This document shows, one piece after another, positions 4,656 through 39,134 of a DNA stretch of 64,000 bases. Numbering within the stretch: position 1 is the first letter of the stretch; each line of letters starts with the position of its first letter. Origin of the DNA: Elusimicrobiota bacterium (GTDB lineage: Bacteria > Elusimicrobiota > Elusimicrobia > UBA1565 > JACRDR01); the NCBI GenBank assembly GCA_041694815.1, contig JBGFSC010000007.1, positions 1 to 64,000 of the forward strand, read 5' to 3'. Made by a program: the position numbers and the translations under genes. The notes beneath the pieces were generated by a model. That model had not been told where the DNA came from, did not search any database, and saw only the letters and a list, made by a program, of their open reading frames with translations.

Positions 4656-5385
4656 TCATGCATCGTAATCGCGCTGCGACGGGAAAAGGAAGCCGTTCAA
4701 GCATTGCGGGTTGCAGAATCCAGTCATCTCCTGGTCCCGGAGCCGGCGCCGGTATTCCTGCATGCCGGGACCGTTCCAGATCGCCTTGAGTGGCTGCCGC
4801 ATGAGATTGCCGGCAGGGATCGGACATAAACACTCCGGATGGATGTCACCGTTAAAATCCATGCGGACGATGAATTTTTTCCACGGCTTCGCGCACCCAA
4901 TGGAGGGACTGCAGGAGCCGTTCAAAACGCGCCGGACGGCATATCTTTTCGAAGGTCTCCGGGATTACGGAATCGATAGACCAGGCTATAGACGCATCGG
5001 CCTCCGCCAGGACATCCGCCCAATACTCGTCGATCAACACACCGGCGGTGGTTATCTGTTGCTCAAGCCGGGAATACCGGCTTCCGGCCAATAGAAGCTT
5101 CTGGAAATACGGCGCCAGAAACACCTCTCCCCCTTGCCAATTGATGCGCTGTAGATAAGGAAATAGTTCAGCGATCTCCCATGCCTTTTCCTCCGGCAAG
5201 ATCTTATTCGATACTTCTCGGGAACAATGGATGCAATGGAGGTTGCACTCGGTCGTCAGGATCGCCATGAGCTCGATCGGCCAAGACTCCAGAACAATCT
5301 TTCGCGCCTCGAATTCCCGTTGGTTGACTTCGAGATTGCGTTCCAAACACGAGGGATAGTCTAATAATGCGGCTACCTGTGGCAT
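4656..5385 (-). pseudogene. Radical SAM/SPASM gene split over two frames with the central part missing
   Basis: ATG at 5385 (MPQVAALL) gives CNLHCIHC and GGE, then stops at 4852. The SPASM-like tail (GDIHPECLC...WNGPGMQEYRR...C.P.C) is in another frame ending at 4656. Confidence 0.65.
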
Positions 5386-5387
5386 GT

Positions 5388-6587
5388 CTATACGATTTCC
5401 CCACAGACGGGGATGCCGCCTTGCCAACGCTCCCACTCTTGCTGGCTCATTCTGTTTTCTCGACCCAAGAGGCAGTTCATGCCGCACCAGTCGGTAGCAC
5501 CGCGAGCTATCTTTTCGCGGAAGCCTCGCATCATCGAGGAGTTCCAGAACGCCATCAGGTCGAAGTTCTCGCCAAAACGCATTTCGGGGATGCAGCCGCA
5601 GGCGACCGAAACGCCTCCGGGGTGGATATAGAGCCTTCTCCAGGGCAGCACGCAATGAAGCCGGTCGATCGGGCGGACGGGATCCTGGCATTGCTGGGAG
5701 CCGAAAGCAGGACCATCTAAGCTCTGCGGCTGTACCTGATGCGATTCCACGCGCATGTGGCTTTCCCTTAATTCCGCGGCCAAATACGGCTCTTTTTCAA
5801 TGACTTCTCCAGGCGTCGTCAAGCAAGGCCAATTACATGCCAGTCCATTCGCCTCGCAGAGGCGATTGACCCGGGGAACCTCCTCTATGAGGCGCTGCAG
5901 CAATCGATTATTTTCCGGCGCATAGAGGTTTTCGCCGTGGACGTCAGGAATATAGTCGAATGCCTTCATCATTTTGAAATTGATCCGCGCAAAGCGATGC
6001 CTCTTGGCGAAATCGACGATGAGGTCTACCTCGTGGACGTTCGATTTCATCAAGACAACGTTCAACTGATGGCGGGGAAGCTTTCCAAACCGATCCAGTG
6101 CCTCGTTTAAACCGTCCAGGTTCCTGATCAATTGCGGCCACGCGGAACCCTCGCGAATCCGCTCATAAGTCGCCTGGGTGCCCCCGTCGACAGAAATGGA
6201 TAAGGAGATATCGCTCTGAGCGATGAGCCGGGACCAGTCGTCGTTGAACAGAAGTCCGTTCGTCGTGATGACCTGGCGCAACTCCGCGTAATCCGCGGCC
6301 CGACGAACTAGTTCGAAGAACTTCCTATGGACGAAGGCCTCGCCTCCCTCCCACTCTATGACTCTCAGATACGGATAAAAGGCCGGAATTTGCTCCAAGA
6401 CATGGTCCGGCACGTCCTGCAGGCGCTGATTTCTGAAAGGACACATAATGCAATGAACGTTACAGCGGCCGGTCAGCACGACAAGCATCATGTCTGGGAA
6501 GCATTCCAGGGACGTTTTCCTAGAAAGGATCTCTTCCTTTTGCAAGAGCGCGTTTCTGCGCAGGCGAGCATCCAAGGACGCTTCCAT
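5388..6587 (-). CDS. Radical SAM protein with SPASM/twitch domain
   Basis: CNVHCIMC, GGE, TNG, SVDG, C-terminal CVLPW...ACGC...C.MNC. Confidence 0.92.
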   Translation of the reverse strand: MEASLDARLRRNALLQKEEILSRKTSLECFPDMMLVVLTGRCNVHCIMCPFRNQRLQDVPDHVLEQIPAFYPYLRVIEWEGGEAFVHRKFFELVRRAADYAELRQVITTNGLLFNDDWSRLIAQSDISLSISVDGGTQATYERIREGSAWPQLIRNLDGLNEALDRFGKLPRHQLNVVLMKSNVHEVDLIVDFAKRHRFARINFKMMKAFDYIPDVHGENLYAPENNRLLQRLIEEVPRVNRLCEANGLACNWPCLTTPGEVIEKEPYLAAELRESHMRVESHQVQPQSLDGPAFGSQQCQDPVRPIDRLHCVLPWRRLYIHPGGVSVACGCIPEMRFGENFDLMAFWNSSMMRGFREKIARGATDWCGMNCLLGRENRMSQQEWERWQGGIPVCGEIV

Positions 6588-6590
6588 GAA

Positions 6591-7664
6591 TTATCCCATA
6601 TAAGCGGCAGGCGTATAGCCGTTGAGGCAATGCTTGGAACAGACACGCTCGGAGCGTTTATTCCCTAGGGCTCGCCGGTATTCCTGCATCCCCGGGCCGT
6701 TCCACACCGACCAGAGATCTTGAGCAGGCGCATGGCCCGCACCCTCGGAGCAGAGACAGTCGGGAAAGATCAAGCCTCCCCGGATAGCGTCGACGCATAG
6801 AGACTCCCAGGGCCTGCGGCAGACCCGTTCCTGGCTCGATCCGCCTCTAGTTCCCTTATAAAGCCGGTTTTCGTCCAGGTCGGTATCTGCATGCAGCATA
6901 TGCTCAAAGATGATTTCTACCTGTATTCCACTCGTTGTGGCCTTTTCTAAAAGAAGCGAATATTGGGATTTTAAAACGCCTAAAACCTCATGATCCCTGC
7001 ACAAGTCGATCTTCTCTTCGGGCGCCAACTCGCCATGGATGAGACCGAAACTGACTTGCGAAAAGCCAAATGCGGCCGCCAAATCAATAAAATCGGCCAA
7101 TTGATGATAATTGGACTTCATCACGCACACCGCCATACTCAGCGGGGCGCTGCAGCGGCGCTCTTGGCGGGCCCGGCTCAGACGTTCTAGATTGCGTAGT
7201 AGATGGGAAAATCGCGCTCCCTGACGGATATATTCGTATTCTTTCTCCTTGGCGCCGTCTATTGATATCTTGATCGAGACAGGATGGCGGGTCAATATCT
7301 CTACCCACTCTTCTGTCAAAAAAAGCCCATTCGTCTGGACAGTCTGCTCAAGGTCGCTGAACGCCGCCGCTCGCTCTATCATCTCGCGGAAATGCGGCAC
7401 CATAAAGACCTCGCCACCCTGCCAAAAGAGGTCCTCGGCATAGGGAAGGAACCGGTCTAGTTCCCTGGCTAGCCACAAGGAAGAGAGCGTAAATTTCTCG
7501 GGAACGTCCCGTAATTCGCACATGATGCAGTTGATATTGCAGGCGTTGGTAACGATAAATCGCAAATAGCGAGGAAAGGACATCAATACCAGCCTCTTTT
7601 CACGAAACTCCAGCTCGTTGAGGCGACGGTTCTCCTCTCGAATTCTATTGGAGGTCGGTATCAT
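6591..7664 (-). CDS. Radical SAM protein with SPASM/twitch domain
   Basis: CNINCIMC, GGE, TNG, SIDG, CRRPW...PDCLC...WNG...CSKHC. Confidence 0.92.
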   Translation of the reverse strand: MIPTSNRIREENRRLNELEFREKRLVLMSFPRYLRFIVTNACNINCIMCELRDVPEKFTLSSLWLARELDRFLPYAEDLFWQGGEVFMVPHFREMIERAAAFSDLEQTVQTNGLFLTEEWVEILTRHPVSIKISIDGAKEKEYEYIRQGARFSHLLRNLERLSRARQERRCSAPLSMAVCVMKSNYHQLADFIDLAAAFGFSQVSFGLIHGELAPEEKIDLCRDHEVLGVLKSQYSLLLEKATTSGIQVEIIFEHMLHADTDLDENRLYKGTRGGSSQERVCRRPWESLCVDAIRGGLIFPDCLCSEGAGHAPAQDLWSVWNGPGMQEYRRALGNKRSERVCSKHCLNGYTPAAYMG

Positions 7665-9256
7665 GCTCGTGAAACCGGCGCCTGCTTAATTTCAGCCAAC
7701 CGCTTGAGGACATACTCGTTCTGCGGGTCTTCCGCAAGGTAGCGGCCGTAATGCTCGATCGCCTTATCTAGCTGTCCAATGCCGTCGTGGTAACGTCCGA
7801 GGCTAAACTGCGTATACGCCTCTACGGACATCTCCAACCCGTCGCCGACGTTCATGCCCAACGACAAGGCGAGCTGCCGGAAGGCCCGGTAGCGCTCCAA
7901 TCGCACCGGATACGTGTTAGTCTTGTCGGCGGATTCCCAATAGAGCGCATGCGGCCCAGGCACGACGCCCCATGCCCGCGGATCCTCTAATAGCCGCCCT
8001 TCCAGGTTCGTGAAGGTGAAACTAGGATAAACATGATGGATATAAGGATGCATTTCTCGGATGAAATCCAGCGTCGCCCGGAAATCGTCCTCGGTTTCTC
8101 CGGGATGTCCGAACATAAAGTTTCCACGGGTCATCAGGCCGGCCCGGTCGATATTTTTAAGCACCGCCTTCATCTGCTCCACCGTCTGGCCTTTCTCCAT
8201 GATGTCGAGGACGCGCTGGGACCCGGACTCAAGACCGATGATCAGCATCCGGCAGCCGGCCTCATATAAGCGGCGGCAGGCGTCCTCCGTCATTTCCGGA
8301 CGGATGATGGCGTTGCATTCGCGCCACGAAAGCCGTGGCCCCGAATCCGAGATCAAAAGGTCGCAGAGGCGCATTAGCTTCTTCATATCGCCGTTGATGA
8401 GAAGGTCGTAAAACTTGATTTCACTGTCTGAGTGCCGCAGGCTCGGCAAGACCTTGCGCTGGTGCTGGATCTCGGCGTAAATCCGCTCTCCGCTCATCTG
8501 CCTAAAGCCCGGCCAGGCCGTCCTATGACCGCAAAAGCTGCAGCGCCGCACACAGCCCCGATTGGTCATCATCACCAGGTCGTGCGGCTTGGCATGATCG
8601 CTGCCGTAGAGCTCCATGTCGAAGGACGAAAAATCCGCGAACGGCAATTCATCTAAGTCCACCGGCGGGCGTGCCCCTGTATACACCGGCTCCCCCTCCG
8701 CATCTCGGATGTACATTCCACGACATCCCTCAAGAGAGGCTCCTTGGCGCAGGCGATCCAGGAGGTCGGCCAAGGTGTGCTCCCCATCGCCCGCGATGAC
8801 CGCGTCCACCTGAGGCTTGCGAATAACCACATCCGCCCAGTTCGGCAGCGTATTGAATATCTGCCCCCCAAAGACCACCACGACGTCGGCGCGGACGGCC
8901 TTGAGCCACCCGGCGACGATCAGGCTGGAAGGGATTGAACTCGAATTGACGGAAAAGCCAACGACGGGACGCTCGTGTCTACAGATGCGCTCGAGGTATT
9001 GGGCGAAGATCCACGCCTTCTCCTGTTTCAGGAACTCCGATGCCAACGCGTCGTGGTCCCATACCGTTTCGATCGCATCCGACCAGCCGTTGCTTCCCGG
9101 GCGGTGGTGGCGGTGGTAGAGCGCAATGTTGATGTCCATGATCTCCGACTCAAAACCCTGCTGCGCCAGATACGCGGAGAGCTGTGCCAACGCCATAGAC
9201 GGCTCGCGCGCCCAAAGGGGCATTTGTATCAGAAACACCTTGGGTCGGACGCTCAT
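7661..9256 (-). CDS. Cobalamin-binding radical SAM protein with C-terminal TPR-like helix pair
   Basis: B12-binding N-terminus (VGFS, VVFGG, GDGE); RGCVRRCSFC; GLESGS; GHPGETEDDF. Start placed at the ATGA overlap at 9256. Confidence 0.92.
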   Translation of the reverse strand: MSVRPKVFLIQMPLWAREPSMALAQLSAYLAQQGFESEIMDINIALYHRHHRPGSNGWSDAIETVWDHDALASEFLKQEKAWIFAQYLERICRHERPVVGFSVNSSSIPSSLIVAGWLKAVRADVVVVFGGQIFNTLPNWADVVIRKPQVDAVIAGDGEHTLADLLDRLRQGASLEGCRGMYIRDAEGEPVYTGARPPVDLDELPFADFSSFDMELYGSDHAKPHDLVMMTNRGCVRRCSFCGHRTAWPGFRQMSGERIYAEIQHQRKVLPSLRHSDSEIKFYDLLINGDMKKLMRLCDLLISDSGPRLSWRECNAIIRPEMTEDACRRLYEAGCRMLIIGLESGSQRVLDIMEKGQTVEQMKAVLKNIDRAGLMTRGNFMFGHPGETEDDFRATLDFIREMHPYIHHVYPSFTFTNLEGRLLEDPRAWGVVPGPHALYWESADKTNTYPVRLERYRAFRQLALSLGMNVGDGLEMSVEAYTQFSLGRYHDGIGQLDKAIEHYGRYLAEDPQNEYVLKRLAEIKQAPVSRA

Positions 9257-10086
9257 GCTACGTTGCGCACCAGCCACTGGGATTCGAACGGGCACCATTC
9301 CTGCGCGCATGTCCTCGGCTCCGGCCAAAGCGAGAAATCCTCGGCGAAGAAGTCTCCCAGCTGGCGGTCCTCGTAACGCGTGCAGCGGTCGACCTTCCCG
9401 TCGCCTCTAATGTGGGCGTAGCGCTGCCCCGCATGGCACAGTTTTCCGGCCGGGCTCAGCGCCTTTAATTGATACTCGAGCTTTTTATCCACCGACGACT
9501 TGTTCGGCGACAGCTCCTCGATGCGGGCCTTCTCCTCCTCGCTGTTGGCTAAGCGCCCATCCACCATTAAGGGAAGAGGGACAAGGACCAACCCATCGCG
9601 TTCCATGCGGTCCCGGTACCGTTCAAAGCGTCCCATCTGGGCGGGATCAGCCACGAAGTAGACCGAACGCTTAGGCGGCCAGCGCTGGGGGAGGTAATCT
9701 CGCGCGTAGACGGCCTTCGGAAGAAACTCCTCGAAGGACACCTGCGTCGGATGGAAGGTGGCCGAGACCCTGAAATGCTCGGGGTCTAGGCTTGGGATCA
9801 GGCGCTCTACCTCCCATGATAGATTCGTGCAGAGGTCCACGGTGTGCATCGACACGACAGCCTTAACGAGATCGTAAAAGCCGGGGAAAATGGATGGCTC
9901 CCCGCCCGACATGTATATATAACACCGGCCATGCTTCCGATAGATTCGCTCCCAGGCCGTGATCCACTCTGAGACCGGACGATGCCTGAGTACCGGAGGA
10001 AGGACGCAGTACGGGCAATGATAATTGCAAGCATAGGTCAAATCAAGGCCGAAGTGGGCGGCGAAACGCAGGTCCTCAGCTCCCAT
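9253..10086 (-). CDS. Radical SAM protein, short paralogous family
   Basis: CNYHCPYC, GGEP, TNLS, TFHP, C-terminal CHAG...RC...C...C. Confidence 0.9.
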   Translation of the reverse strand: MGAEDLRFAAHFGLDLTYACNYHCPYCVLPPVLRHRPVSEWITAWERIYRKHGRCYIYMSGGEPSIFPGFYDLVKAVVSMHTVDLCTNLSWEVERLIPSLDPEHFRVSATFHPTQVSFEEFLPKAVYARDYLPQRWPPKRSVYFVADPAQMGRFERYRDRMERDGLVLVPLPLMVDGRLANSEEEKARIEELSPNKSSVDKKLEYQLKALSPAGKLCHAGQRYAHIRGDGKVDRCTRYEDRQLGDFFAEDFSLWPEPRTCAQEWCPFESQWLVRNVA

Positions 10087-11881
10087 GCTCCTCTTCCAAC
10101 CATTGCCTGATCTGCGCGTTGTTCTCAGCGTACATCGCCGTGCAATGCCGGCAGAACGGCATCATGGTTCCTTCAAGCATGCTCTTCCGGTATTCTTCCG
10201 CGTCCCCCTCGACCCATGCCTGGCGGAAAGGGACGTCGCGCAGGTTGATCCGAGACTGGTGCGTCTCCTCGGCGTAACAACAGGGCACCAGATGGCCTGC
10301 GGGCGTTACGGCCGCCTGATGCCAGGGATAATAACAGGGAACGCGTCCCACTGCGGCCGCGTCATTCGCCCGGTATACTGAGCTCGGATTGATTGCGGAA
10401 GCGTAGAGGGATTGGAGCACGGCGCGATTTCTCAGGCGGACGTCGTTGATCTTAGCCAATTCTTCTGGCATGAAGGGAATACGGCAAATACGAGAGATGA
10501 ATCGGGCCATGCCGTCGAGTTCCTGCGCGCTGAACGTTTCCGCTAAGAAAAGGTCGGAGGACCGTATTAAGCGGTTGAAGGCCTCAATAACGCGTTCTTC
10601 TTCCGGTGAACCCCGAGATCGATCGCCTAGAGACTCAGACAAGGTATCGTTGAATCTCCCGGGTTTGCGCACAAGCTCTAGAAGCTTCCGCAGATCGAAG
10701 TCGCCCTTCGAAAAGAATGGAAAAGTCGTATCATGGCGCTGAAAATCGCCTTTGCGGATGAACAGCTCGAAATTCTGCCGAATCCCATGCCGGTTAGCCC
10801 GCTCGATGAATCCGGGAAGCAGCTCTTGGAGCCGCGTGAGATCAGCCTCTTCCATCAACAACGCCTTGGCTCCGTCGTGCCGATGGCTATGACGGGTCTC
10901 ATAAGGATAGAGCGCCTGAAGGATTTTCCGGTTGATGAGCCCGACACGATCGACCTCGATAGGCCTGCCACCCGAAAGGTCGGCGCGCAAGGCCTCCACC
11001 CGTTCGCGCGTCGCCGAGTCGAGGATAAGGGCCGCGGTATCGACCCGTTCGCATAAATCCGGAGAATATTGAAGAGCGCGGAATGCGCTTATGACGAACT
11101 CTTCCCGCATCGCGTCGAGTCGGTCGCGGCCCACGCCCGCGCTGCTCTCTAAAGCTTCCATGACAAGTCGATTGGACGGCGAGTCCGCTTTCAACGTCTC
11201 TTTTAACGCGCCCAGGTCGAGATCGCCGCGATCAAAATTGGCGGGCCAGCGAAGGCTCATCGTATCCAGCTCGATCAGGCTCACCCCATGGCGCGCGGCT
11301 AGATCGATATATTGGCCCAATTGGCGGTAATTTTTCTTCGTCAGAACGCAATGGAATCCAAGCTGCGGATTTTCCGGCGCCGACTTTATCGCGCGGAAAC
11401 GCTCCAAGGCTTCGATGATGCGTGAGAAAACCCCTCGCTTCGCGCGAAGCTCGTCCTGCACGGCCGCATCGGCGCCGTCCAAACTGAAGTTGATCTGATC
11501 CCAGCGGCACGAGGCGAATAATCGGCAAAACCCCTCGTCCATATGCGTGCCGTTGGTGACCAAGGTGCCGCAAGCGCCATAGGACTTGATCAGAGGGATG
11601 ATTTCGAAGAGCAGGCTTCGCCGCAGCAGCGGCTCGCCTCCTCCCTTGATAATAACGGACTTGGTGCCCATCTCCAGCGCGTCGCGCACCATTTGGACAT
11701 ATTTTCCGTTCGGTATTTCGCGATGCTCGGCGTAGAAGGCCTTAAGCTCGTCCTGGCGCCTGCAGAAGATGCAATTGAGATCGCACGCCATCGTCGGGTT
11801 CAGCTGCAGGGTATAGGGCGCCTGGGGACGGCCTCCTTCGATCCACTCCTCTAGGCGCCGTACCAGCTCCTGATTTTTCAT
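10076..11881 (-). CDS. Radical SAM/SPASM protein with two copies of an inserted ~110-aa domain
   Basis: CDLNCIFC, GGGEP, TNG, CYYPW...PCC...CRHC. Start placed at MKNQELV (11881). Confidence 0.9.
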   Translation of the reverse strand: MKNQELVRRLEEWIEGGRPQAPYTLQLNPTMACDLNCIFCRRQDELKAFYAEHREIPNGKYVQMVRDALEMGTKSVIIKGGGEPLLRRSLLFEIIPLIKSYGACGTLVTNGTHMDEGFCRLFASCRWDQINFSLDGADAAVQDELRAKRGVFSRIIEALERFRAIKSAPENPQLGFHCVLTKKNYRQLGQYIDLAARHGVSLIELDTMSLRWPANFDRGDLDLGALKETLKADSPSNRLVMEALESSAGVGRDRLDAMREEFVISAFRALQYSPDLCERVDTAALILDSATRERVEALRADLSGGRPIEVDRVGLINRKILQALYPYETRHSHRHDGAKALLMEEADLTRLQELLPGFIERANRHGIRQNFELFIRKGDFQRHDTTFPFFSKGDFDLRKLLELVRKPGRFNDTLSESLGDRSRGSPEEERVIEAFNRLIRSSDLFLAETFSAQELDGMARFISRICRIPFMPEELAKINDVRLRNRAVLQSLYASAINPSSVYRANDAAAVGRVPCYYPWHQAAVTPAGHLVPCCYAEETHQSRINLRDVPFRQAWVEGDAEEYRKSMLEGTMMPFCRHCTAMYAENNAQIRQWLEEEHGS

Positions 11882-11888
11882 AACGCGG

Positions 11889-12800: not shown

Positions 12801-13476
12801 TGTTCAGCGGCACCTTTTGCTTTATGGAGGACAGGTATAGGCCGAGGTCGATAGCTAGCCGCACAAAACGCTCCCTCCTATCCTCGCGAATGGCAGCGGT
12901 GTTGGCGCCGTCCTTGGTATGCCAATCCGTATACCAGTGGGTACCCTCTTTGGGGGTTACGACAACCCCGAAGCGGTCGCGCTCATTGTAGACGGGGGCA
13001 TAGCTGTTGATCCACATGCTGGCCATGCTTCCGACCGCATCGATGTAGGGCGCGTTACGCGCTAAAAAATCAAGAGTATCCTGAAAATATTCCTCGGTCT
13101 CCCCTGGGAAACCTACGATGAAATTGACGCAGGTGCCGATGCCCGCCGTTTTTAGGTCTTTAAAAATCCTTTCGGCATCCCCAATTTTAAATTTTTTTCC
13201 CATGGCATCGAGAACCGGTTGCGACGCACTTTCTAGGCCGAAGTTCACCGCACAGCACCCTGCACGGCGCAACTCAGTAATCACGTCGGGAATCATTCCG
13301 TGGTCTAAGCAGTGTTCCTTTACATGGGACGGAGAAGTCCGAAATAAATCCCAGTTTAAGTCTACAACCTTAACATCATAACCAGCGGCCTTTATGGCAG
13401 CATCAACGTGACCGAGGCCGATATCGGGAGGATACGGCAAGGTCACACACGGCAAACGGAGCAGGCATATCTTCAT
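12793..13476 (-). pseudogene. B12-radical SAM homolog with a large in-frame internal deletion (no CxxxCxxC)
   Basis: The first ~55 aa of a B12-binding domain run directly into the C-terminal barrel half (GLESAS, GFPGETEEYF); 227 aa versus 460-550 aa for most siblings. Confidence 0.65.
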
Positions 13477-13478
13477 CT

Positions 13479-14624: not shown

Positions 14625-14626
14625 AA

Positions 14627-31253: not shown

Positions 31254-32521
31254 GCGTGCAACTCCTCACGTAAGGAGGTCGCCCGGACGGTCTGCTCCGG
31301 GAACTTGAAATTCGCGTAGCCCACCGCCGTGCAACGCTCGCAGACATGGTCGGAGTCGGGAATCACCGGCCGATCTCCCCGCACGTAGCGGCGCACATGC
31401 CGCCTGGATCGACGGTAGCGCCCGCCGTTCCAGATCGCTGAAAATCCTTTCCGGAACGCGTTACCGAAATCGTCGCCTTGATCCTCGACGCTGCAGCAGG
31501 GCGCGACGGAACCATCCGGGTTGACGGTCATGCCGGCCCAGGGCCACTTGCAGATCGGGCGCTCCGCGGGCGCGCGGTAGGGAATAGCCGCCGCCGCGGG
31601 CGCCGGCTGCCGCAAGGCGCGCCAGGCGCGCTCGAGCGTTTCCGGGCTCAGGGGCGCCAGGGCCGCGAGGCCTAGGAGCTGGCGGGGTTTGAAACGTCGG
31701 GCGCGGTACGCCTTCAATGAGGGAATGGATTGGACCGGGACCGCGCCGTCCGCGGGACCCTCCGCGGGAGCCGCGTAGAGCTGGTATTCCGGAAGGCGGG
31801 AAAGCCAGGAGCGCAGCACGGCGGGCTCGTTGGCCATAAAGGGGGCGACGAAGCTGACGCCGTCCATGCCCAGCTCGGCGGCCAGGCGCCGTGCCTCCTT
31901 CATTTCGTGCTCGTTGTGCTTGAAGACGATGAACTGCCAAATCAGCCTAGGCGTCGGCCGCGAGGCGCGGGTCCGCTTTTGCACGAGCGTTCTGACGTTG
32001 GCAAGCACCCTATCGAAATCGCCGCCGACGCGGTAGCGCTTGTAGGATTCAGGCGTGGCACCGTCGATGGAAACGCTCAAGATGTCCAAGCCAGAGCCGA
32101 TGAGGCCGTCTGCCATCGCTTCGGTGAGGTCGTTGAGGTTGGCGTCGAGTTTGACCTCGATGCCGTAGCGCTTGGCGCAGGAGATCATCCGCGGCAGGTC
32201 CTTGTTGAGCAGCGATTCACCCCAGTTCATGAGGTCCATGTGGATCACGTAGGGGCCGACGCGCTCCAACAGACGCTCGAAATGATCCAGACGCAGCATC
32301 GCCTTGTCGCGCACGCCGCGGCCCGCGCCCGTCGGACAGAAGGGGCATTGGAGCTGGCAGAAATTGGTCGGATCGACCGTCAGCCAATAGGGTTTGCCCA
32401 GGAGCCAGGAATGCCCGCGGGCCAGTTGCGCCTCAACGAGCAGGTAATTGGCCCATTTGCGGTAGGCTCGCGCCCGCCAAAGGCGCTGGGCTACCGGCCA
32501 TTCACCATATGGGCAGAACAC
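31250..32521 (-). CDS. Radical SAM protein with SPASM/twitch domain
   Basis: CQLQCPFC, WGE, SIDG, CKWPW...PCC...IWNG...CERC. Confidence 0.92.
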   Translation of the reverse strand: MFCPYGEWPVAQRLWRARAYRKWANYLLVEAQLARGHSWLLGKPYWLTVDPTNFCQLQCPFCPTGAGRGVRDKAMLRLDHFERLLERVGPYVIHMDLMNWGESLLNKDLPRMISCAKRYGIEVKLDANLNDLTEAMADGLIGSGLDILSVSIDGATPESYKRYRVGGDFDRVLANVRTLVQKRTRASRPTPRLIWQFIVFKHNEHEMKEARRLAAELGMDGVSFVAPFMANEPAVLRSWLSRLPEYQLYAAPAEGPADGAVPVQSIPSLKAYRARRFKPRQLLGLAALAPLSPETLERAWRALRQPAPAAAAIPYRAPAERPICKWPWAGMTVNPDGSVAPCCSVEDQGDDFGNAFRKGFSAIWNGGRYRRSRRHVRRYVRGDRPVIPDSDHVCERCTAVGYANFKFPEQTVRATSLREELHA

Positions 32522-32546
32522 GTCAAAAAGGCTTCGAAGCGATGGC

Positions 32547-33266
32547 TTAATGAGTCTCCTCCACGAAAGACCTGACGCAGGCGGCGTAGGAGCAGCCGGA
32601 CGCCTTCAGGCGCGAATGGTCGTAGGCCCCCGCGCCGAAATTGGAGCAATCCAGGAAACGGCAGTCCGCCGCCCGCGCGAGCGACCACTGCTGCGTCCAG
32701 AGACCCTCGCTCATCCGTGCGAAGGAGGCTCCCGTAATCTCCGCCCGGGCACCCTCCCGCAACAGAAAACCCGTCTCCAAGTCCTCAAGCCTGCTGCCGT
32801 CGCAAGCGATCCTAGATAAGCCCCAAGCGAGCAGGCCTCGCTTGGCATAGGAAAATTGGACATCAGCCAAGAAAGCTCGAGCATCGTCAAAGCACTGGAT
32901 CAAATGCTCCTCGGCCCCCTCCAACGCCGCATGCTCGATCTCAAGGCGTCCGGCGCCAAGCGCCGTGATGCCACCCCAGGGCTGGCCCCGGCGCCCGAAA
33001 CGTATCGGCTTGGCAGGGCTTCCGCGAGCGACCAAGCGGCCTAAAACAACCATATCGCAGCGCGAGCGCAGCGAGGCCTCGATGGGGTAGCCCTCCGGGG
33101 CGCTGCGGAAGATGGAGCAGGACCATCGTGGGGACGGAGCAAAACCCAGCTCGGTTCCAGGAGCCAAGGTCAAGATCACTCCCCTCGGAACGACGAGATC
33201 TCCTGTGATGGCGACCTGGCCCGCAAAGGTCGTATCCAGTCCAAGCTCGCCGCTATACTCCGTCAT
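32547..33266 (-). CDS. Small right-handed parallel beta-helix protein
   Basis: GDLVVPRGVILTLAPGT, GRLVARGSPAKPIRF...WGGI, followed by ~22-aa coils. Confidence 0.75.
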   Translation of the reverse strand: MTEYSGELGLDTTFAGQVAITGDLVVPRGVILTLAPGTELGFAPSPRWSCSIFRSAPEGYPIEASLRSRCDMVVLGRLVARGSPAKPIRFGRRGQPWGGITALGAGRLEIEHAALEGAEEHLIQCFDDARAFLADVQFSYAKRGLLAWGLSRIACDGSRLEDLETGFLLREGARAEITGASFARMSEGLWTQQWSLARAADCRFLDCSNFGAGAYDHSRLKASGCSYAACVRSFVEETH

Positions 33267-34216
33267 AGGGCCCGCTCCTCAGCGCCGTCCATAGGCATGA
33301 ATAGGTCCACACGCCGCGGGTGCACCTTCTGGTAGTGATCCCAGAGATAAGACGCCTCGCCGCAGAAGCATCGGTTTTTGGGGCAGGCCGTGGGGCCCTC
33401 GAGCAGCTCGAACTCCGAATCAAAAAGATTGCCTAGAGGCGCGACATGCCGAACGCTGCTGCCGCAACGGTAAACGTCCCCGTTGGACAGTACCTTGGCA
33501 TACGCGTATCCCGAAGCGCAAGGCTTGCCCAGCGGAGATTCCGGTAGTTCATAGTGGTCCGTCAAGTCGTGGACGTGCCGGGCCAATGATCGCCGCTCGG
33601 AATCCGTATAAGATGCGGGGTAGAGACGATTTTCGAAATGCCCGAAGAACACTTGTATCCAAAGTGGAAATCCGTTACGCCCGAAAAGGGATTGCAAACT
33701 ATCCAATCGGTCCATAAAAGGCGGCCATGCAACAACCGATGCCGAGCACTCAAAGCCCCGTCTCTTGAGCAATCTCAGCTTCTCCAAGAAGGGTTCGGCT
33801 TCCGTATACTGGGGATGGAAGGACGCGCTGAAGCGCAACCGCTCCGCGGGGACGGCGTCAGCCAAGGTTTCGATGCGGGGCCATGGCAAGGACAAATTAG
33901 TAACGACCGTCACGAAGTGCTTGCGCGTTATTCCGGCGAGGAGCTCGTCGACCTTTCGATACAGCAACGGCTCTCCCCCAAGAATAGTCAAATGCACGCT
34001 GCCGTATTGTTGGTACACGCGGTCCCAGCAGGCCCGCCATGCGGAGGGCTCGATCCACTCCTGGAAATCCTCCATTTGCTCCCACGATCCGGTCATTTCC
34101 CAGGGGCAGTATGAGCATCGATAATTACAGGAATACCATAGCTCCCAGACGATCTGGAGGCCGTGCCACTCGTCCCGGACACGCCACTTTGCGGCAAACG
34201 GCTCCTTGATTTCCAT
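33263..34216 (-). CDS. Radical SAM protein, short paralogous family
   Basis: CNYRCSYC, GGEP, TNLS, SFHP, CASG...RC...CPKNRCFC. Confidence 0.9.
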   Translation of the reverse strand: MEIKEPFAAKWRVRDEWHGLQIVWELWYSCNYRCSYCPWEMTGSWEQMEDFQEWIEPSAWRACWDRVYQQYGSVHLTILGGEPLLYRKVDELLAGITRKHFVTVVTNLSLPWPRIETLADAVPAERLRFSASFHPQYTEAEPFLEKLRLLKRRGFECSASVVAWPPFMDRLDSLQSLFGRNGFPLWIQVFFGHFENRLYPASYTDSERRSLARHVHDLTDHYELPESPLGKPCASGYAYAKVLSNGDVYRCGSSVRHVAPLGNLFDSEFELLEGPTACPKNRCFCGEASYLWDHYQKVHPRRVDLFMPMDGAEERAL

Positions 34217-34221
34217 GACGA

Positions 34222-35427
34222 TTATAAGGCTCCAGCCGCCAGCCTCTCGACGTCGCCCGCCTTGAAATAAGGGCCGGGATCGAGACCTCGCCGGAGGATC
34301 TCCTCAAGCAATGCCGCCTGTTGCCGCGGGCGATTCGTCAGGTGACAATAGATATTGTCGACGTTGAAGCCTTTATAGCGAATGCAGCTCCGGCACCAGG
34401 GATGCGGCTCTCCCTGCGCCATGCCGCGGCGCAGCTCGCGATAAAAAGAGTTATTCCAAATGGAATCGAGCTCGTCGCCCTTCTTCAAGTCGCCGACGTG
34501 CTCACCCCAGAAGCAGCACGGGATTACCGATCCTTGCAGCTCGACATAGAGGTGCTGCCACGGGTCGTAGCAGAGCTCGTTCGCGGCGGCGGCCGGGGCG
34601 GCTTGGGCGTTGAAAAGCGGCGGCAGCTGGACCTGGAAAGCCTCCGGCTTGGGCAGACTCGAGGCTCCGCGCTCGAGCGCCTCCGCCGTCTGTTTGGCCT
34701 CCAGGATGCTACGGTTGGCCCGCTCCTGGTCGAAGAAGCAGGACATGCCGATATGCTCCGGGGCGAACATCGTCATGTGGAAGGCCCGCACCTCTTGCAC
34801 CTTCAGGCGCCAGGCCAATTTTAGTAGCTCCGAGAGGTCATCGATATTGCGAGTGGTCAGGACGTCGACGAGCACCAAGTGGAGCTGCCTCCCCAAATCA
34901 TGCCTGTCCCTCAGCTCGGCCAAGTTCTGGATGTTCGCGATCACCTCATTGAAGCCGCCTTCGAGCTGTGTAAGCTCCTCATGTAGCTTCGCATGCGAGG
35001 CATGGACCGATAACTGAATCGCGTATTTCCCCTTCAATATCCGTTCGACGACCGAGGGTCGCAGCGGCGTGGCGTTCGTGGTGAAAATCTTCCAAGTCTC
35101 CGGAATAGTTTCGTTGATGTAATCCAGGAACTCTTCGATGCCGGGCACCCAGAGAATTTCACCGAAACCCGTGAACGTCACCTTCTCGGCGTTCTTGATG
35201 TAACGGCCCATCCGGGCCTCGAAGAAATCCTTGTAAATCTGCAGGCTGAAGCGCGAATAACTGCCCTCGAGGCAGAAAACGCACTTGGCGTTGCAGGCAT
35301 TGTGCGTGCCCAGCGTCACCAGGCGCGGCGTCGAGGCCAGTTCCAGGCGGCGAGCCTGAAACTCTTCGTTATTTAAGCGTACGTTGGCTTCGCGCCCGAT
35401 AGGCTTGGTCTCGATCGAAACGTCCAA
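34222..35427 (-). CDS. Radical SAM protein with SPASM/twitch domain
   Basis: CNAKCVFC, GFGE, CYDPW...PCC...IWN...CRSC. Confidence 0.92.
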   Translation of the reverse strand: MDVSIETKPIGREANVRLNNEEFQARRLELASTPRLVTLGTHNACNAKCVFCLEGSYSRFSLQIYKDFFEARMGRYIKNAEKVTFTGFGEILWVPGIEEFLDYINETIPETWKIFTTNATPLRPSVVERILKGKYAIQLSVHASHAKLHEELTQLEGGFNEVIANIQNLAELRDRHDLGRQLHLVLVDVLTTRNIDDLSELLKLAWRLKVQEVRAFHMTMFAPEHIGMSCFFDQERANRSILEAKQTAEALERGASSLPKPEAFQVQLPPLFNAQAAPAAAANELCYDPWQHLYVELQGSVIPCCFWGEHVGDLKKGDELDSIWNNSFYRELRRGMAQGEPHPWCRSCIRYKGFNVDNIYCHLTNRPRQQAALLEEILRRGLDPGPYFKAGDVERLAAGAL

Positions 35428-37025
35428 CGCGTTCCCTCCCCTCCAAGGATTGCCTCGGCCCTATCCGGCCGACCGAGTGCCCGATAACAGGATGCCAGCG
35501 CCTCTAGCGTAGTCCGATTGACGGACTCCAAACGAAGCGAGCGCCTAAAGCAGAGTATGGCGCGCCGGTAATTCCTTTTGTAGAGATGGTATTCGCCGAG
35601 CAAATACCATTTATCCGGCTTCCGCGCGAGGATACCCGAAGTCTCGGGGATGCGCAGCTGCAACGCCAGCTGGCAGAACTCCTCATAGCGCTTGAAGCGC
35701 TCCGGATAGTCGTTTTCGCCTCCGTTCGATTCCCAATAGAGATGGTGATCCTGACCCGAGATGCCGAACTCCTCAGGCTGGCTGTGGAGCGCCGTATTCT
35801 TGTCGATCACGCAGAAGGACTGACTCGCTAGAATCGTATCGATATAAGGGCGGTTCTTGACCAGGAAACGCATGGTATCCTGAAAATCCTCCCGGCTTTC
35901 CGTCGGCATGCCGAACATGATGTTGACCTGCGTCCCGATGCCCGCCTCGTGGGTCGCCTTGAGCGTCTCATGCGCGTTGCGGTTGGTGAACTTCTTATTG
36001 ATGCGCCATCGCAGTGCCTCGGAACCGCTCTCGATGCCGTAACCCAGCCACACACAGCCGGCCTTGGCCATCTTTTCCATGAGGCCCTTGTTCATGCCGG
36101 GATTGACGATGGCCTGCCCCGCCCAGCGGATTTTGATCCCGTCTTGGATGACGAGCTCGCAGAACTCATTTAAGGCCTTGAGGCTGCCGTTGAGCAGCGA
36201 TCCGATGAAATAAAAGTAATCGACCTGAGGGTAGCGCGCGATCTGAAATTTGACCTCGTCGAACATGCGGCGTCCCGACATCGTGCGGAAGCGACGCCAG
36301 AACTGCCATTCGCTGCAGAAATGACAGGTGCGCACGCAACCCCGACTGTCGAAGATCTCGAGCCGGTGGGGGCTATTGTAGCGCCGGCCGACGATATCCT
36401 CGGAGAAGTCCGAATAGTCCGGGAACGGCAGGGCGTTAATATCCTCGATCAGCGGACGGTCGCCGCAGTCGAGGATGCGGCCGTCCTGGCGCAGGATCAG
36501 GCCGGGAATGGGCCGGATTGCTCCGTGACGCTCGACCTCGTCGAGCAGCGCGCGGAATGTCTCCTCGCCCTCCCCTACCGCCACGGCGTCGACGGCGGGG
36601 TCGGCGGCGAAACGAAGCCCCGCTTGCTCACGCGAGCACTGGGGGCCGCCGAAGACGACTAGCCGCCCGGGATCCTCCCGCTTGATGCGGCGGGCGATCT
36701 CAAGACTGAAGAGGAAGGAGGTAGTGTGCGTCGTAAACCCCACGACCCGCGCGCCGCTGTCGAGGATACGCCGGACGGACCGCGACACCGCAGCCTCATT
36801 TTCGCACGCGAGTTGGCCGACGCGGCTCGGATTCTCCCAGAAGGAATAATAATCCTTATCGAGCCACATGCGCTCGTAGCCCGGCGAGCGGTGGTAGAGG
36901 TCATTATTAAGATCAAAGCAGGCGGCCTCATGCCCAGTCCGACGCAGATAGGCGGCCAGGCAGGCCAAGGAAAACGGAGGGCACTCCCGACCCCAGCCGG
37001 GACATTGGACCAAAGCGGACTTCAT
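35373..37025 (-). CDS. Cobalamin-binding radical SAM protein with C-terminal TPRs
   Basis: VVFGGP, GEGE, SRGCVRTCHFC, GIESGS; TPR-like tail. Confidence 0.92.
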   Translation of the reverse strand: MKSALVQCPGWGRECPPFSLACLAAYLRRTGHEAACFDLNNDLYHRSPGYERMWLDKDYYSFWENPSRVGQLACENEAAVSRSVRRILDSGARVVGFTTHTTSFLFSLEIARRIKREDPGRLVVFGGPQCSREQAGLRFAADPAVDAVAVGEGEETFRALLDEVERHGAIRPIPGLILRQDGRILDCGDRPLIEDINALPFPDYSDFSEDIVGRRYNSPHRLEIFDSRGCVRTCHFCSEWQFWRRFRTMSGRRMFDEVKFQIARYPQVDYFYFIGSLLNGSLKALNEFCELVIQDGIKIRWAGQAIVNPGMNKGLMEKMAKAGCVWLGYGIESGSEALRWRINKKFTNRNAHETLKATHEAGIGTQVNIMFGMPTESREDFQDTMRFLVKNRPYIDTILASQSFCVIDKNTALHSQPEEFGISGQDHHLYWESNGGENDYPERFKRYEEFCQLALQLRIPETSGILARKPDKWYLLGEYHLYKRNYRRAILCFRRSLRLESVNRTTLEALASCYRALGRPDRAEAILGGEGTRWTFRSRPSLSGAKPTYA

Positions 37026-37037
37026 ATATCCGGACCG

Positions 37038-37066
37038 TTTATATCAGGCATTTCTTGTTTAAGCAA
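37038..37066 (-). promoter_or_regulatory. Candidate sigma70 promoter TTGCTT-17-TATAAA (extended TG) for 37025 and downstream genes
   Basis: AT-rich intergenic gap; -35 at 37061-37066, -10 at 37038-37043. Confidence 0.5.
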
Positions 37067-37087
37067 TACATTCTCAAAGAGAATTTT

Positions 37088-37933
37088 TTATTGAATTGCG
37101 CCGAAATCACAAATATCCTGACCGTGTATGGCCGCCTTCTCTTGCAAATCGACATCCATGGCTTCGTTGGCTAAGAAATTGTTGGAAAATAAGTTGATTT
37201 CGCTAGCCCCGGTTCCATATACGCCTATACGATTGTGCCATATCCTACAAGTCCGCACGTCCGCCTTGGCATCCGCGCTAGCACTGATCGCGGTATGATT
37301 TCGCTCCATGTGGGAGCCAACGACGGAAAAAACCGAAGCCTCCATCGCGTTGACCCCGCACTGCGCGCTATCAAAGACCCGACAGGCACCCAAGGAGGCC
37401 CGGGCTAAACCCTTAGCGGCCACCCCCGTGGCGTTATGCTGCAGCAGGCAATCCTCAAGCGAAACCTGCGCCCCCGCTTCGGCCAGGATACCAACGAATC
37501 GCTGCTCTCGTACGGAGCAACGTCGAAGCACAACGGTCGCCCGACCGCAGCAGTGGATCGCGTTTCCTCCACGGTAGAACGAACAGTCTGCAAGGCTCGC
37601 GGACGCCTCCTCATCGATCGTCAATAGATCACCATCTAGCCCCTCGAAGCGAGCATAAGATAGTACCCCTTGCGCGCGTTTGACGAAGCGTACACCCGAC
37701 CATTCGCCCTCGGGGAAGAAAAGGACCTCCTTCCCGGGCAATCCATCGACTCGAAGCACCCCCCTGACTTCGATCCCGGGCAGGCCGCGCTCGCCTCCGC
37801 GAAAAATCGCCTTGGTGCCCCTTGCGACCGTCAAAGTGCTGCCCGCTGGGACGACCACGGGGCCCAGAACTCGGACGATGCCTTCCCATCTCGATCCCAC
37901 CTCGCCGCTGGAGACAACGGTTTCACGAAGCAT
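37088..37933 (-). CDS. Small right-handed parallel beta-helix protein
   Basis: GPVVVPAGSTLTVARGT, RGVLRVDG, WSGV, ~22-aa coils with N/G ladders. Confidence 0.75.
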   Translation of the reverse strand: MLRETVVSSGEVGSRWEGIVRVLGPVVVPAGSTLTVARGTKAIFRGGERGLPGIEVRGVLRVDGLPGKEVLFFPEGEWSGVRFVKRAQGVLSYARFEGLDGDLLTIDEEASASLADCSFYRGGNAIHCCGRATVVLRRCSVREQRFVGILAEAGAQVSLEDCLLQHNATGVAAKGLARASLGACRVFDSAQCGVNAMEASVFSVVGSHMERNHTAISASADAKADVRTCRIWHNRIGVYGTGASEINLFSNNFLANEAMDVDLQEKAAIHGQDICDFGAIQ

Positions 37934-37940
37934 GGTCCTC

Positions 37941-39134
37941 TCAGCCGACGTCCCGATAGGCCTTGCCCCAGGACTTGCCGAAACCGAGCGCCATGCCTCG
38001 GTCCAGGATGGGATTGGCGATGCAGTTTAGCCAGCAATCGCAGCTGCAGGAATCAACATAGCGACGCTCGCGCTCCGCCTCGGCGGAGGTCCAAACGGCA
38101 TCAAAGGACCGCTTCGCCACGCTACCGATGGTCCTATGCTTGTTGACGGGGCAATAGAAAAGATTACCCTCGGGATCGAGCATCGCGTAGCGCTGTCCAG
38201 CCATGCAGTCCTTGAAGAAGCGCTCCTGCTTCCGGGCGTACTTCTTAAGATAGGCCCAATAGAGCAGGCGTGTCCAGAGCCACAGGGACTCGGCGGCCCG
38301 CCCCTCGCGCAAGCGTTCCCAGGCCCGCTCCTTGAGGCATAGGTCCATCAAGATAAGGTCGATCTGCGCCTCCACGGCCTCGAGCTCTTTCTTCTTCCAA
38401 TTGAAGGTTTCGGGCGCCTCAAGACCGCGGTGATTGACCACCAACTGGGCTCCGAACCACAGCCCCATACCGCTGACGAATCGGTAAGCGGGCCAAAGCT
38501 CTTTGTAATTCTTCGGCGTCACGGTCAGGCTGAAGGAGAAATCGACGCCGGGAAATTCCTTGCGCAGCATCTCCACCGAACGGACCAGACCACGAAAGGC
38601 TCCCTTTCGTCCGCGGATCTCATCGTGTTTTTTTTCCAGCCCGTCCAAGGAGGAGCCAAGCCAAACCCGCGCGGCGCCCGCCTCCCGGAAAGCGAGAAGC
38701 CGGCGACGGACGAGCTCGTGGTTCCAGAGATTGGTCAGTACGCCGATGGACGACTTGGGAAAATGGCCCGCAAGGAACCCGACCACATCGACGATTTCGG
38801 GCTTCATCATGGGTTCGCCACCGGTGATGACGACGATCTCGACATCCTTTAACAGCTTGGAGCCCGTGACGAAGCCACGGATCTGATCCAGGCCCATCTC
38901 GCGCGAGACGGAGCCCGGATCCTTGAAGGGCATCTCCCAATGATGGCACATGATGCACTTGAGGTTGCAGCGGTGCGTTAGCTCGATGTGGAGTTCTCGG
39001 ATCGGCTCGCCGTCCTTTCGTCCTCCCAATCGGGCCAAGCCACGTTCGAGCGGCTTCTCAAGCGCGGTGAGCACCTCTTCGAGTCGCCGCTCGGGCGAAG
39101 CCGGAGGCGTGATTTTTTCGTCGGTCACCTGCAT
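37941..39134 (-). CDS. Radical SAM protein with SPASM/twitch domain
   Basis: CNLKCIMC, GGEP, SLDG, CMAG...YC...CSCDCWLNC. Confidence 0.92.
   Translation of the reverse strand: MQVTDEKITPPASPERRLEEVLTALEKPLERGLARLGGRKDGEPIRELHIELTHRCNLKCIMCHHWEMPFKDPGSVSREMGLDQIRGFVTGSKLLKDVEIVVITGGEPMMKPEIVDVVGFLAGHFPKSSIGVLTNLWNHELVRRRLLAFREAGAARVWLGSSLDGLEKKHDEIRGRKGAFRGLVRSVEMLRKEFPGVDFSFSLTVTPKNYKELWPAYRFVSGMGLWFGAQLVVNHRGLEAPETFNWKKKELEAVEAQIDLILMDLCLKERAWERLREGRAAESLWLWTRLLYWAYLKKYARKQERFFKDCMAGQRYAMLDPEGNLFYCPVNKHRTIGSVAKRSFDAVWTSAEAERERRYVDSCSCDCWLNCIANPILDRGMALGFGKSWGKAYRDVG

Follow-up and report, generated by a model that had tools for sequence, protein, structure and literature searches.

The window analysed here, the first 64,000 nucleotides of contig JBGFSC010000007.1 from an uncultured groundwater Elusimicrobiota bacterium (GCA_041694815.1; a 2.77-Mb bin of 54 contigs with 97.8% completeness), carries 30 co-directional minus-strand genes running from 39134 down to 4656, 26 of which match the radical S-adenosylmethionine (rSAM) profile PF04055 (Pfam). 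Sequence comparison supports the view that this array encodes one coherent multi-step pathway and is no pile of recent duplicates, because its paralogs are mutually only 22-57% identical, 10 of the 11 copies of its short enzyme family have their nearest relative in another genome, and its gene order is collinear with a conserved core. The evidence slightly favours the reading that the array represents an enlarged version of a conserved but uncharacterised pathway for a cell-envelope glycan, in which radical tailoring would take place in the cytoplasm before export by a Wzm/Wzt-type transporter. From the observed gene content, paralog age, orthology, conserved order, partner genes and fusions, we infer the substrate class, and every chemical step (epimerisation, oxidation, C-methylation) by analogy with the enzyme classes elsewhere. 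If the glycan reading is true, the locus would represent a class of radical carbohydrate chemistry on polymers, with C-methylated or epimerised sugars made after assembly. To our knowledge, 26 rSAM genes (24 intact) in one run exceed the number in any characterised pathway, and no published description of this gene cluster was found in the literature searched, whose coverage leaves out most subscription journals.

Array content and integrity

The first-pass annotation, made from the letters alone, had counted 26 rSAM genes among the 30 in the span 4656..39134 and divided them into seven B12-binding, eight SPASM/twitch and 11 short-family members. The count was borne out exactly by the Pfam scan and by a six-frame search of the whole genome, which returned 50 PF04055 matches (29 in the window, 26 in the array span) and independently recovered all 26 array genes, and the class split was reproduced by the hidden Markov model scan and alignment. 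Half of the genome's rSAM matches are concentrated in 1.2% of its DNA. The PF04055 gathering cut-off (29.5 bits) is exceeded in 24 of the 26 genes, with g26 (26.6) and g15 (21.8) below it, and the CX3CX2C cluster motif occurs in all but the remnant g23. Within the B12-type class (g03, g08, g14, g16, g18, g27 and the C-terminal fragment g23), the B12-binding domain PF02310 is above cut-off in g03, g08, g14, g16 and g27, falls short in g18 (28.8 vs 32.1 bits) and is missing from g23. The SPASM/twitch class comprises g01, g04, g07, g09 and g25, with Pfam SPASM matches above cut-off, together with g28-g30, whose twitch matches are sub-threshold. The 11 short proteins measure 277-381 residues, and the four non-rSAM genes encode beta-helix proteins (g02 and g06) and metallo-beta-lactamase (MBL)-fold proteins (g13 and g21; Table 1).

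The genes are tightly packed in the manner first described, with ATGA-type overlaps or gaps of a few nucleotides: 11 of the 29 junctions are 4-nt overlaps (nine ATGA, two GTGA) and 26 lie between -15 and +25 nt, lengths that are affected by the approximate and in some cases uncertain gene starts. The consensus promoter proposed ahead of the array does exist as a pattern (39173-39145, TTGACA-17-TACACT, 10 of 12 consensus positions), but it carries no weight, since such sites are no commoner than chance (two between 36500 and 44000, compared with 1.9 expected from shuffled sequence). The absence from the array of a nonribosomal peptide synthetase or polyketide synthase scaffold gene was confirmed by Pfam, which found none of their domains there, and an Rfam scan of the window matched no family.

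The 54-contig state of the bin, together with two remnants among the 26 rSAM genes, could be taken to indicate an assembly artefact or a graveyard of decaying paralogs. The remnants are g23 and g30, the latter with its N-terminal half and C-terminal tail in different frames and the tail ending at 4656, whereas the other 24 rSAM genes have open frames and intact motifs. The longest repeat at the DNA level spans 256 nt at 72% identity and there are no long near-identical repeats, which, together with the low identity among paralogs, makes recent amplification and repeat-driven misassembly unlikely. In addition, blocks of the same order recur in independent assemblies (g24-g25-g26-g27 in G014; g18-g19...g25-g26 in G004), and orthologs reach 60-78% identity in other Elusimicrobiota bins, so that an artefact or graveyard is hardly credible.

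Three enzyme families and their nearest relatives

The short family is defined by the motifs CNYRCxYC and GGEP and by four invariant C-terminal Cys residues in the arrangement C-X12-G-X4-C ... CX4CXC, which is unchanged in 46 short-family sequences and is the sequence signature of a twitch-type auxiliary cluster. Its fold matches include SkfB, anSME, BtrN and SuiB, and also BlsE, DesII and SpeY; the family therefore sits in the SPASM/twitch fold group, a group whose fold does not discriminate between peptides and sugars as substrates. For all 11 short proteins the top named model is NF038073 (STM4011 family radical SAM protein), itself uncharacterised, and the match spans nearly the full length in seven of them and only the first ~160 profile positions in g10, g15 and g22. 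Membership in the STM4011 family was rejected, as scores of 42-93 bits stand against a cut-off of 200. The close homologs of g11 (n = 94) bear generic names only, and a profile of the family searched against 1.84 billion representatives returned 894 at E 1e-30 or better. If the glycan reading is true, these roughly 900 representative clusters, annotated only as 'radical SAM protein', would gain a first role.

The intact B12-type genes, in which the B12-binding domain precedes the rSAM domain, are putative cobalamin-dependent (class B) rSAM methyltransferases by this domain order. Their best PDB relatives are TokK (4e-10, for g03, whose orthologs reach 66% identity) and CysS (4e-6). Two other functions were rejected. 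Anti-phage defence was dismissed because PADLOC gave only partial N-terminal pVip matches of at most 59 bits and weak PDC-M51A matches, none of them extending past the generic rSAM core. Sulfatase maturation as the main role was dismissed because the anSME model scores at most 38 bits against a cut-off of 349 and the minimal version of the core, described below, has no sulfatase. Sulfatase genes do lie near arrays in G004, G009 and G014 and on contig C42 of the source genome (loci L071, L074, L075, L079 and L081).

A collinear core shared across phyla

A quick FastTree phylogeny of the short family held 201 sequences, namely the 11 window copies and 190 open reading frames (ORFs) from fetched loci whose match to a window copy reached E 1e-20 or better across 220 residues or more, after 29 duplicates from overlapping loci were dropped. 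The single window copy without its nearest neighbour in another genome is g22, which forms a pair with g15, and g05 comes close to a tie with g17. Orthologs in Omnitrophota and Planctomycetota are 35-58% identical to the array genes. Those of g04, at the head of the core, range from 37 to 71%, and those of g25 (52-54%) adjoin orthologs of g26.

The neighbourhood census was made on the fetched loci (about 80), with ORFs in GC-rich loci chosen hit-first. The order g04, g07, g09/g08, g11, g19, g22, g24 or g20, g12, g26, g28 recurs in many of them, and the window keeps this order with extra paralogs inserted. In G156 and L046 the core head consists of a beta-helix/nucleotidyltransferase-like protein followed by orthologs of g04, g07, g09, g08, g11 and g19; G185 has the same head except that its g11 ortholog is placed further downstream, and in L057 the first ORF, with a GSSDID motif, is followed by the same six orthologs. 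The search for syntenic arrays suggested in the first-pass annotation has thus revealed a conserved collinear core in other genomes and phyla. The uniqueness implied by that annotation is not supported, as arrays of 10-20 rSAM genes occur in other genomes, and strong short-family matches were found in nine of 41 related genomes and, in an even sample of the phylum, in 21 of 201 genomes (17 of the 171 of high quality; 14 of 76 genera). A pattern scan of species genomes gave loci with titles naming Elusimicrobia, Endomicrobiaceae, Omnitrophota, Planctomycetia and Pacearchaeota, among others. This patchy distribution, together with the lower G+C content of the array (53-63% in 2-kb windows, vs 61-65% for most contigs of the genome), fits a surface-glycan island.

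The most compact version was found in G083, a complete 1.8-Mb genome of the same phylum, where the core forms one tight 21-gene operon (junctions of -46 to +34 nt) with 15 rSAM genes in core order, thereby offering a defined minimal expression target. This operon begins with a family 2 glycosyltransferase (GT2), two SPASM rSAM genes, a family 4 glycosyltransferase (GT4), a 411-residue protein and a 3120-residue beta-helix protein, continues with the 15 rSAM genes, and lies between a phospholipase D (PLD)-type, cardiolipin-synthase-like gene on one side and LptF/LptG on the other. Its GT4 is 32.5% identical over the full length to the GT4 upstream of the window array, its 411-residue protein is weakly similar to the 452-residue protein of the window (E 4e-5), and the C-terminus of its beta-helix protein is homologous to the 518-residue nucleotidyltransferase-like protein of the window. 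The core keeps its gene order in Elusimicrobiota, Omnitrophota and Planctomycetota and is present even in genomes of 1.5-1.9 Mb; it is therefore under selection, and it is likely to shape the surface of abundant, as yet uncultured anaerobes.

Méheust et al. (2020; 10.1101/765248) describe uncharacterised suites of up to 13 adjacent rSAM genes, some B12-binding, next to group VI nifHDK paralogs in groundwater Elusimicrobia, that is, in the same phylum and habitat, and the biosynthesis of a tetrapyrrole-type cofactor has been proposed for such suites. The suites differ in their partners, which are NifH/D/K paralogs there and glycosyltransferases, beta-helix proteins and Wzm/Wzt here, with no NifD/K-like gene. 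The source genome has no Oxidored_nitro match and only a 29-bit P-loop match to NifH; in four relatives (G014, G020, G027 and G032) the nitrogenase paralogs lie on contigs other than the short-family arrays, and G004 has an array without any. The array and the described suites are therefore different loci, and a cofactor role, largely refuted for this genome, is very improbable.

Evidence for a proposed glycan substrate

The partners of the core point to carbohydrate. In the fetched loci it is always accompanied by glycosyltransferases and a giant beta-helix/nucleotidyltransferase-like protein, and often by a Wzm/Wzt exporter, which comes after the core head in G156 and G185; Wzm/Wzt or glycosyltransferase genes occur in or beside the arrays of L009, L011, L017, L023, L025, L028, L041, L067, L069, L079 and L085. 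In the window, genes for Wzm, Wzt, the 452-residue protein and GT4 lie directly upstream on the array strand, and an O-methyltransferase gene lies downstream; the permease, ATPase and glycosyltransferase are all above Pfam cut-offs (44, 68.4 and 90.5 bits), with NCBIfam equivalog cut-offs unreached. Domain fusions extend this link. Of the long proteins hit by the short-family profile (E 1e-67 or better), 22 were scanned; four consist of GT2-GT2-GT4-rSAM in one polypeptide of 1208-1623 residues, 14 join short, B12 and/or SPASM rSAM domains together, and four contain tetratricopeptide repeats (TPR). One of the GT2-GT2-GT4-rSAM fusions is represented by four full-length copies of 1572 residues on separate Omnitrophota contigs from different archives. 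The strongest single argument comes from these fusions, which suggest that the short family is tied to glycosyltransferases and the three rSAM families to one another. A polymeric substrate is thus plausible, and the GT4/GT2 genes in the core, Wzm/Wzt and the glycosyltransferase-rSAM fusions point to a glycan. Of the assembly line for radical tailoring of one polymeric substrate that was originally proposed, the coherent multi-step pathway and a plausible polymer, now preferably a glycan, are retained, and the specific chemistry and the single substrate stand as hypotheses.

In the pathway proposed here, GT4 and GT2-type enzymes in the cytoplasm would assemble a sugar chain or else a sugar linked to a lipid or nucleotide. 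The roughly 24 intact rSAM enzymes, which belong to three old families, would then act on it at defined sugar positions via hydrogen-atom abstraction, each old paralog handling its own position or step. The short twitch and SPASM/twitch families could catalyse epimerisation, oxidation, deoxygenation or C-C/C-S coupling, and the B12 family C-methylation, while the attachment or removal of small groups would fall to ordinary O-methyltransferases, an SGNH domain and the MBL hydrolases. The beta-helix (CASH-type) proteins and the nucleotidyltransferase-like domain would serve as holder or activator of the chain, and Wzm/Wzt would export the product.

The giant beta-helix protein of the window contains about six tandem repeats of ~200 residues and the G083 protein (L084:10057-19419, minus strand) about nine near-identical repeats of ~180 residues; these near-identical repeats of 180-200 residues carry regularly placed Cys, and repeat number may set a length. 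A tentative, more specific version of the glycan reading is that the system is a polysaccharide counterpart of the maturation of ribosomally synthesised peptides with post-translational modifications (RiPPs), in which a growing or completed sugar chain, laid in the cytoplasm along a giant, length-variable beta-helix scaffold, would be edited residue by residue by position-specific radical epimerases, oxidases and C-methylases. Common sugars would thereby become rare ones at a stage between polymerisation and Wzm/Wzt export. In a bolder variant, the repeat-rich beta-helix protein may itself be the substrate, a radical-modified protein of several thousand residues.

The 518-residue protein of the window has the G-S-x-D-x-D nucleotidyltransferase motif, invariant among its homologs, and a language-model lead to NTP_transf_2. 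Its structure model (predicted local distance difference test, pLDDT, 71) has no Foldseek match at E 0.001, and the top rows, all aminoglycoside nucleotidyltransferases (ANT/AadA) at E 0.05-0.5, are a lead only. The same domain is fused to GT2 in L009 and L030 and to the giant beta-helix protein elsewhere, and the beta-helix protein is therefore better regarded as part of the machinery.

This fusion bears on the alternative that the battery cross-links, epimerises and C-methylates a protein or peptide made on the ribosome, which might be the giant beta-helix protein, always at the head of the core, or else a precursor whose gene lies elsewhere. The closest solved structures are the RiPP maturases SkfB, SuiB and anSME, the top models of the B12 genes are RiPP C-methyltransferases (TIGR03975, 125-147 bits against a cut-off of 282), and TPR domains are fused to g03, g16 and g27. 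Moreover, a PqqD-like protein and a GT2-PqqD fusion are encoded in the window and in three other loci, and the giant protein stands out as the sole large conserved companion of the core that does not look like an enzyme. However, the clusters formed by 3,259 small ORFs from about 80 loci consisted only of PqqD-like proteins, half-MBL proteins and noise from overlapping frames, with no conserved precursor among them, although short or unconserved peptides could escape such a search; this agrees with the initial remark that no evident precursor lies inside the array. Small ORFs were likewise absent from the gaps of the G083 operon, and three of the four PqqD loci have no conserved ORF upstream of PqqD, the 36-residue ORF at 50948-51058 of the window being without a counterpart in the other three. 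None of the 26 rSAM proteins carries a recognition domain, and the cluster motif of the non-B12 array proteins stands at residue 16-65, which leaves no room for one at the N-terminus. Neither a leader peptidase nor an exporter of the peptidase type was seen with Pfam, the minimal G083 operon lacks PqqD, and short-family domains are fused to glycosyltransferases. A protein or peptide substrate is accordingly judged unlikely.

Lipids offer a further alternative, in which a membrane lipid or glycolipid would be tailored by methylation, ring or bridge formation or head-group rearrangement, as by Tes/Mss, GrsA/B, Hbs, Hgm and Cds for tetraether lipids or HpnH/J/R for hopanoids. B12 rSAM and SPASM/twitch rSAM classes make such changes, and Planctomycetes and Omnitrophota have homologs of them (10.1101/2023.10.20.563219). 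In the NCBIfam scan of the B12 genes HpnJ ranks with the better matches, at up to 154 bits, and the G083 operon is placed between the PLD-type gene and LptF/LptG. However, all scores are far below cut-offs (578 for HpnJ), and the genes conserved alongside the core encode glycosyltransferases, a beta-helix protein of carbohydrate type and Wzm/Wzt, which makes a lipid substrate quite improbable.

Several observations weigh against the glycan reading itself. Its support comes throughout from gene neighbourhood and fusions, some of which are possibly metagenome gene-calling errors. No array enzyme reaches the NCBIfam cut-off of any characterised family, and the preference of the B12 genes for RiPP C-methyltransferase models runs counter to it. 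The PqqD-like protein and TPR domains in the window would suit a protein or peptide partner. In addition, no recognised family of initiating polyprenyl-phosphate glycosyl-phosphate transferase was found among the 50 window ORFs scanned.

Comparison with known systems

Radical enzymes that tailor sugars are familiar from aminoglycoside, nucleoside and orthosomycin pathways, including GenK (B12-type), AviX12 and HygY. BtrN, SpeY, DesII and BlsE are likewise small twitch-type rSAM enzymes acting on sugar carbons and encoded beside glycosyltransferases. In such pathways, however, small molecules are modified by one to three rSAM enzymes, and the identity is only 12-22%, whereas here 15-26 rSAM genes accompany polymer-export genes. 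ABC-dependent glycan pathways (ABC, ATP-binding cassette), such as O-antigen Wzm/Wzt and teichoic acid TagGH, also place an ABC-2 permease and an ATPase beside cytoplasmic glycosyltransferases and methyltransferases; the window differs in its scores below NCBIfam cut-offs and in that no initiating transferase was found in it. We know of no ABC-dependent glycan pathway with an rSAM battery or a giant beta-helix/nucleotidyltransferase-like protein.

In proteusin (polytheonamide) maturation, the B12 rSAM C-methyltransferases PoyB/C and the rSAM epimerase PoyD, about three rSAM enzymes in all, act repeatedly on a leader-bearing precursor. The likeness lies in many radical methylations and epimerisations on one polymer and in the models preferred by the array B12 genes; the difference is that many distinct enzymes and no precursor were found here. 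The NosDFY system combines the beta-helix protein NosD with an ABC-2 transporter, and a NosD-type beta-helix protein is similarly encoded beside an ABC-2 permease and ATPase in the window. Unlike in NosDFY, there are no nos genes, and the beta-helix protein here is of giant size and repetitive sequence and has a link to a nucleotidyltransferase-like domain.

Neighbouring genes and related loci

The array genes and their neighbours are listed in Table 1.

Table 1. Genes of the array (g01-g30) and neighbouring features of the window; values are bit scores unless stated otherwise
Feature	Position	Strand	Description	Evidence
NTase-like	811..2367	+	Nucleotidyltransferase-like protein, 518 aa, GSSDVDLG	No Pfam match; G66, S68, D69, D71 invariant among homologs
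Second O-methyltransferase	2357..3481	+	Homologs inside arrays L009, L021, L076	Methyltransf_3 79.3
O-methyltransferase	3507..4598	-	Directly downstream of array, same strand	Methyltransf_3 96.8
g30	4656..5385	-	Remnant of g28/g29-type rSAM: 177-aa N-terminal ORF 4852-5385 and frameshifted tail 4656-4859	PF04055 46.5
g29	5388..6587	-	Twitch-like rSAM	PF04055 48.8; N_Twi_rSAM 64.1
g28	6591..7664	-	Twitch-like rSAM	PF04055 53.2; N_Twi_rSAM 70 (cut-off 170)
g27	7661..9256	-	B12-binding rSAM with TPR	PF04055 71.4; PF02310 42.6
g26	9253..10086	-	Short-family rSAM	PF04055 26.6 (below cut-off); CNYHCPYC; orthologs up to 72%
g25	10076..11881	-	Long SPASM rSAM	PF04055 62.9; SPASM 29.3
g24	11889..12800	-	Short-family rSAM	PF04055 46.5; alignment
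g23	12793..13476	-	Remnant, C-terminal part of B12-type rSAM	PF04055 profile positions 88-166 only; PhpK family 76
g22	13479..14624	-	Short-family rSAM with insert	PF04055 32.7; alignment
g21	14627..15310	-	MBL-fold hydrolase, HxHxDH intact	Lactamase_B_3 66.6; 47% to g13
g20	15307..16278	-	Short-family rSAM, start uncertain	PF04055 44.7; 57% to g24
g19	16205..17278	-	Short-family rSAM	PF04055 33.3; orthologs up to 78%
g18	17287..18678	-	B12-type rSAM	PF04055 54.5; PF02310 28.8 (cut-off 32.1); ApyD-like 134 (cut-off 750)
g17	18675..19628	-	Short-family rSAM	PF04055 36.2; alignment
g16	19625..22282	-	B12-binding rSAM fused to GDSL/SGNH and TPR	PF04055 76.3; PF02310 49.6; Lipase_GDSL_2 40.9; TPR_19 31.3
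g15	22279..23424	-	Short-family rSAM with internal insert	PF04055 21.8 (below cut-off); CNYRCSYC; 52% to g22
g14	23424..24809	-	B12-binding rSAM	PF04055 80.9; PF02310 52.7
g13	24813..25499	-	MBL-fold hydrolase, HxHxDH intact	Lactamase_B_2 68.6; alignment
g12	25496..26413	-	Short-family rSAM	PF04055 37.2; alignment
g11	26410..27258	-	Short-family rSAM	PF04055 47.6; structure model pLDDT 90
g10	27251..28168	-	Short-family rSAM	PF04055 34.3; alignment
g09	28165..29310	-	SPASM rSAM	PF04055 57.7; SPASM 32.1; orthologs up to 71%
g08	29298..31253	-	B12-binding rSAM	PF04055 66.4; PF02310 41.1
g07	31250..32521	-	SPASM rSAM	PF04055 57; SPASM 46.1
g06	32547..33266	-	Small beta-helix-like protein, conserved WSCSVFRSAPEGYPIE motif	Beta_helix 21.5 (below cut-off); orthologs 36-48% in three loci
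g05	33263..34216	-	Short twitch-like rSAM	PF04055 36.2; NF038073 92.6 (cut-off 200); alignment
g04	34222..35427	-	SPASM rSAM, start uncertain	SPASM 43.5; PF04055 32.2
g03	35373..37025	-	B12-binding rSAM with C-terminal TPR	PF04055 74.5; PF02310 55.1; TPR_2 27.7
g02	37088..37933	-	Small right-handed beta-helix, NosD/CASH-like	Beta_helix 48.1; NosD 36.4
g01	37941..39134	-	SPASM rSAM, 397 aa, first array gene	PF04055 60.6; SPASM 25.5; CNLKCIMC
GT4	39210..40481	-	GT4 glycosyltransferase, directly upstream; conserved core partner	Glyco_trans_1_4 90.5
452-aa protein	40478..41836	-	Possibly GT-A-like, judging from sequence	No Pfam/NCBIfam match
Wzt-like	41793..42545	-	ABC ATPase	ABC_tran 68.4; TagH 140.7 (cut-off 320)
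Wzm-like	42542..43315	-	ABC-2 permease	ABC2_membrane 44; Wzm/RfbD 58.4 (cut-off 380)
Giant beta-helix protein	43365..48671	+	1768 aa, divergent; S26-peptidase-like N-terminus, hydrophobic stretch	Beta_helix 284 in 9 stretches; NosD 142.5
PqqD cluster	51073..53865	+	PqqD-like protein, GT2-PqqD fusion (MftF-like), rSAM	PqqD cluster in 4 loci
Further rSAM genes	53866..57957	-	Two B12-type rSAM genes flanking a methyltransferase

No significant solved structural relative was found for the 452-residue protein. To the right of the array there are genes for a sugar aminotransferase, GT2, GT-C (PMT_2) and an AlgX-like protein, together with a further three rSAM genes. The stretch 48675-62237 holds an Arn-like set, with a DegT-type aminotransferase, an NAD-epimerase-like gene and an ArnC/AglJ-like GT2 beside PMT_2, and a CofD-like gene that overlaps a nucleotidyltransferase gene. 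The PqqD-like protein and the GT2-PqqD fusion are encoded 12 kb from the array on the other strand, and PqqD-like proteins recur near the arrays of L009, L030 and L071; the best model for the fusion is the mycofactocin glycosyltransferase MftF (148 bits vs 280). A promoter-like TTGACA-17-TAGCAT precedes the 36-residue ORF, which is basic and is followed by the 94-residue PqqD-like protein on the plus strand.

The window encodes eight intact B12-type rSAM genes, yet neither a CobA/BtuR-type adenosyltransferase nor CbiB/CobD was found in the source genome (97.8% completeness), so the organism may depend on scavenged cobamides. Contig C42 of the same genome (L080, L081) carries two short-family and several B12 rSAM genes with GDSL-TPR proteins and PMT_2 glycosyltransferases, as well as an asparagine synthase, a PhyH-like dioxygenase and a sulfatase. 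The first base of the window is also base 1 of its contig, so the C42 locus could lie next to it.

Some features recur or vary among the fetched loci. The triad short rSAM - MBL - short rSAM is recurrent, and a conserved half-MBL protein of ~100-150 residues, which resembles the N-terminal half of the array MBL hydrolases but lacks the complete fold, occurs in eight loci (L009, L015, L016, L021, L059, L074, L076 and L078), while the neighbours of the small beta-helix gene vary. In G156, an IS200-like transposase gene and an ORF6N-domain gene are inserted mid-array (L086:3758-5202, minus strand). The Pacearchaeota record (L055), an archaeal bin, contains seven tandem short-family-like genes with 25-31% identity.

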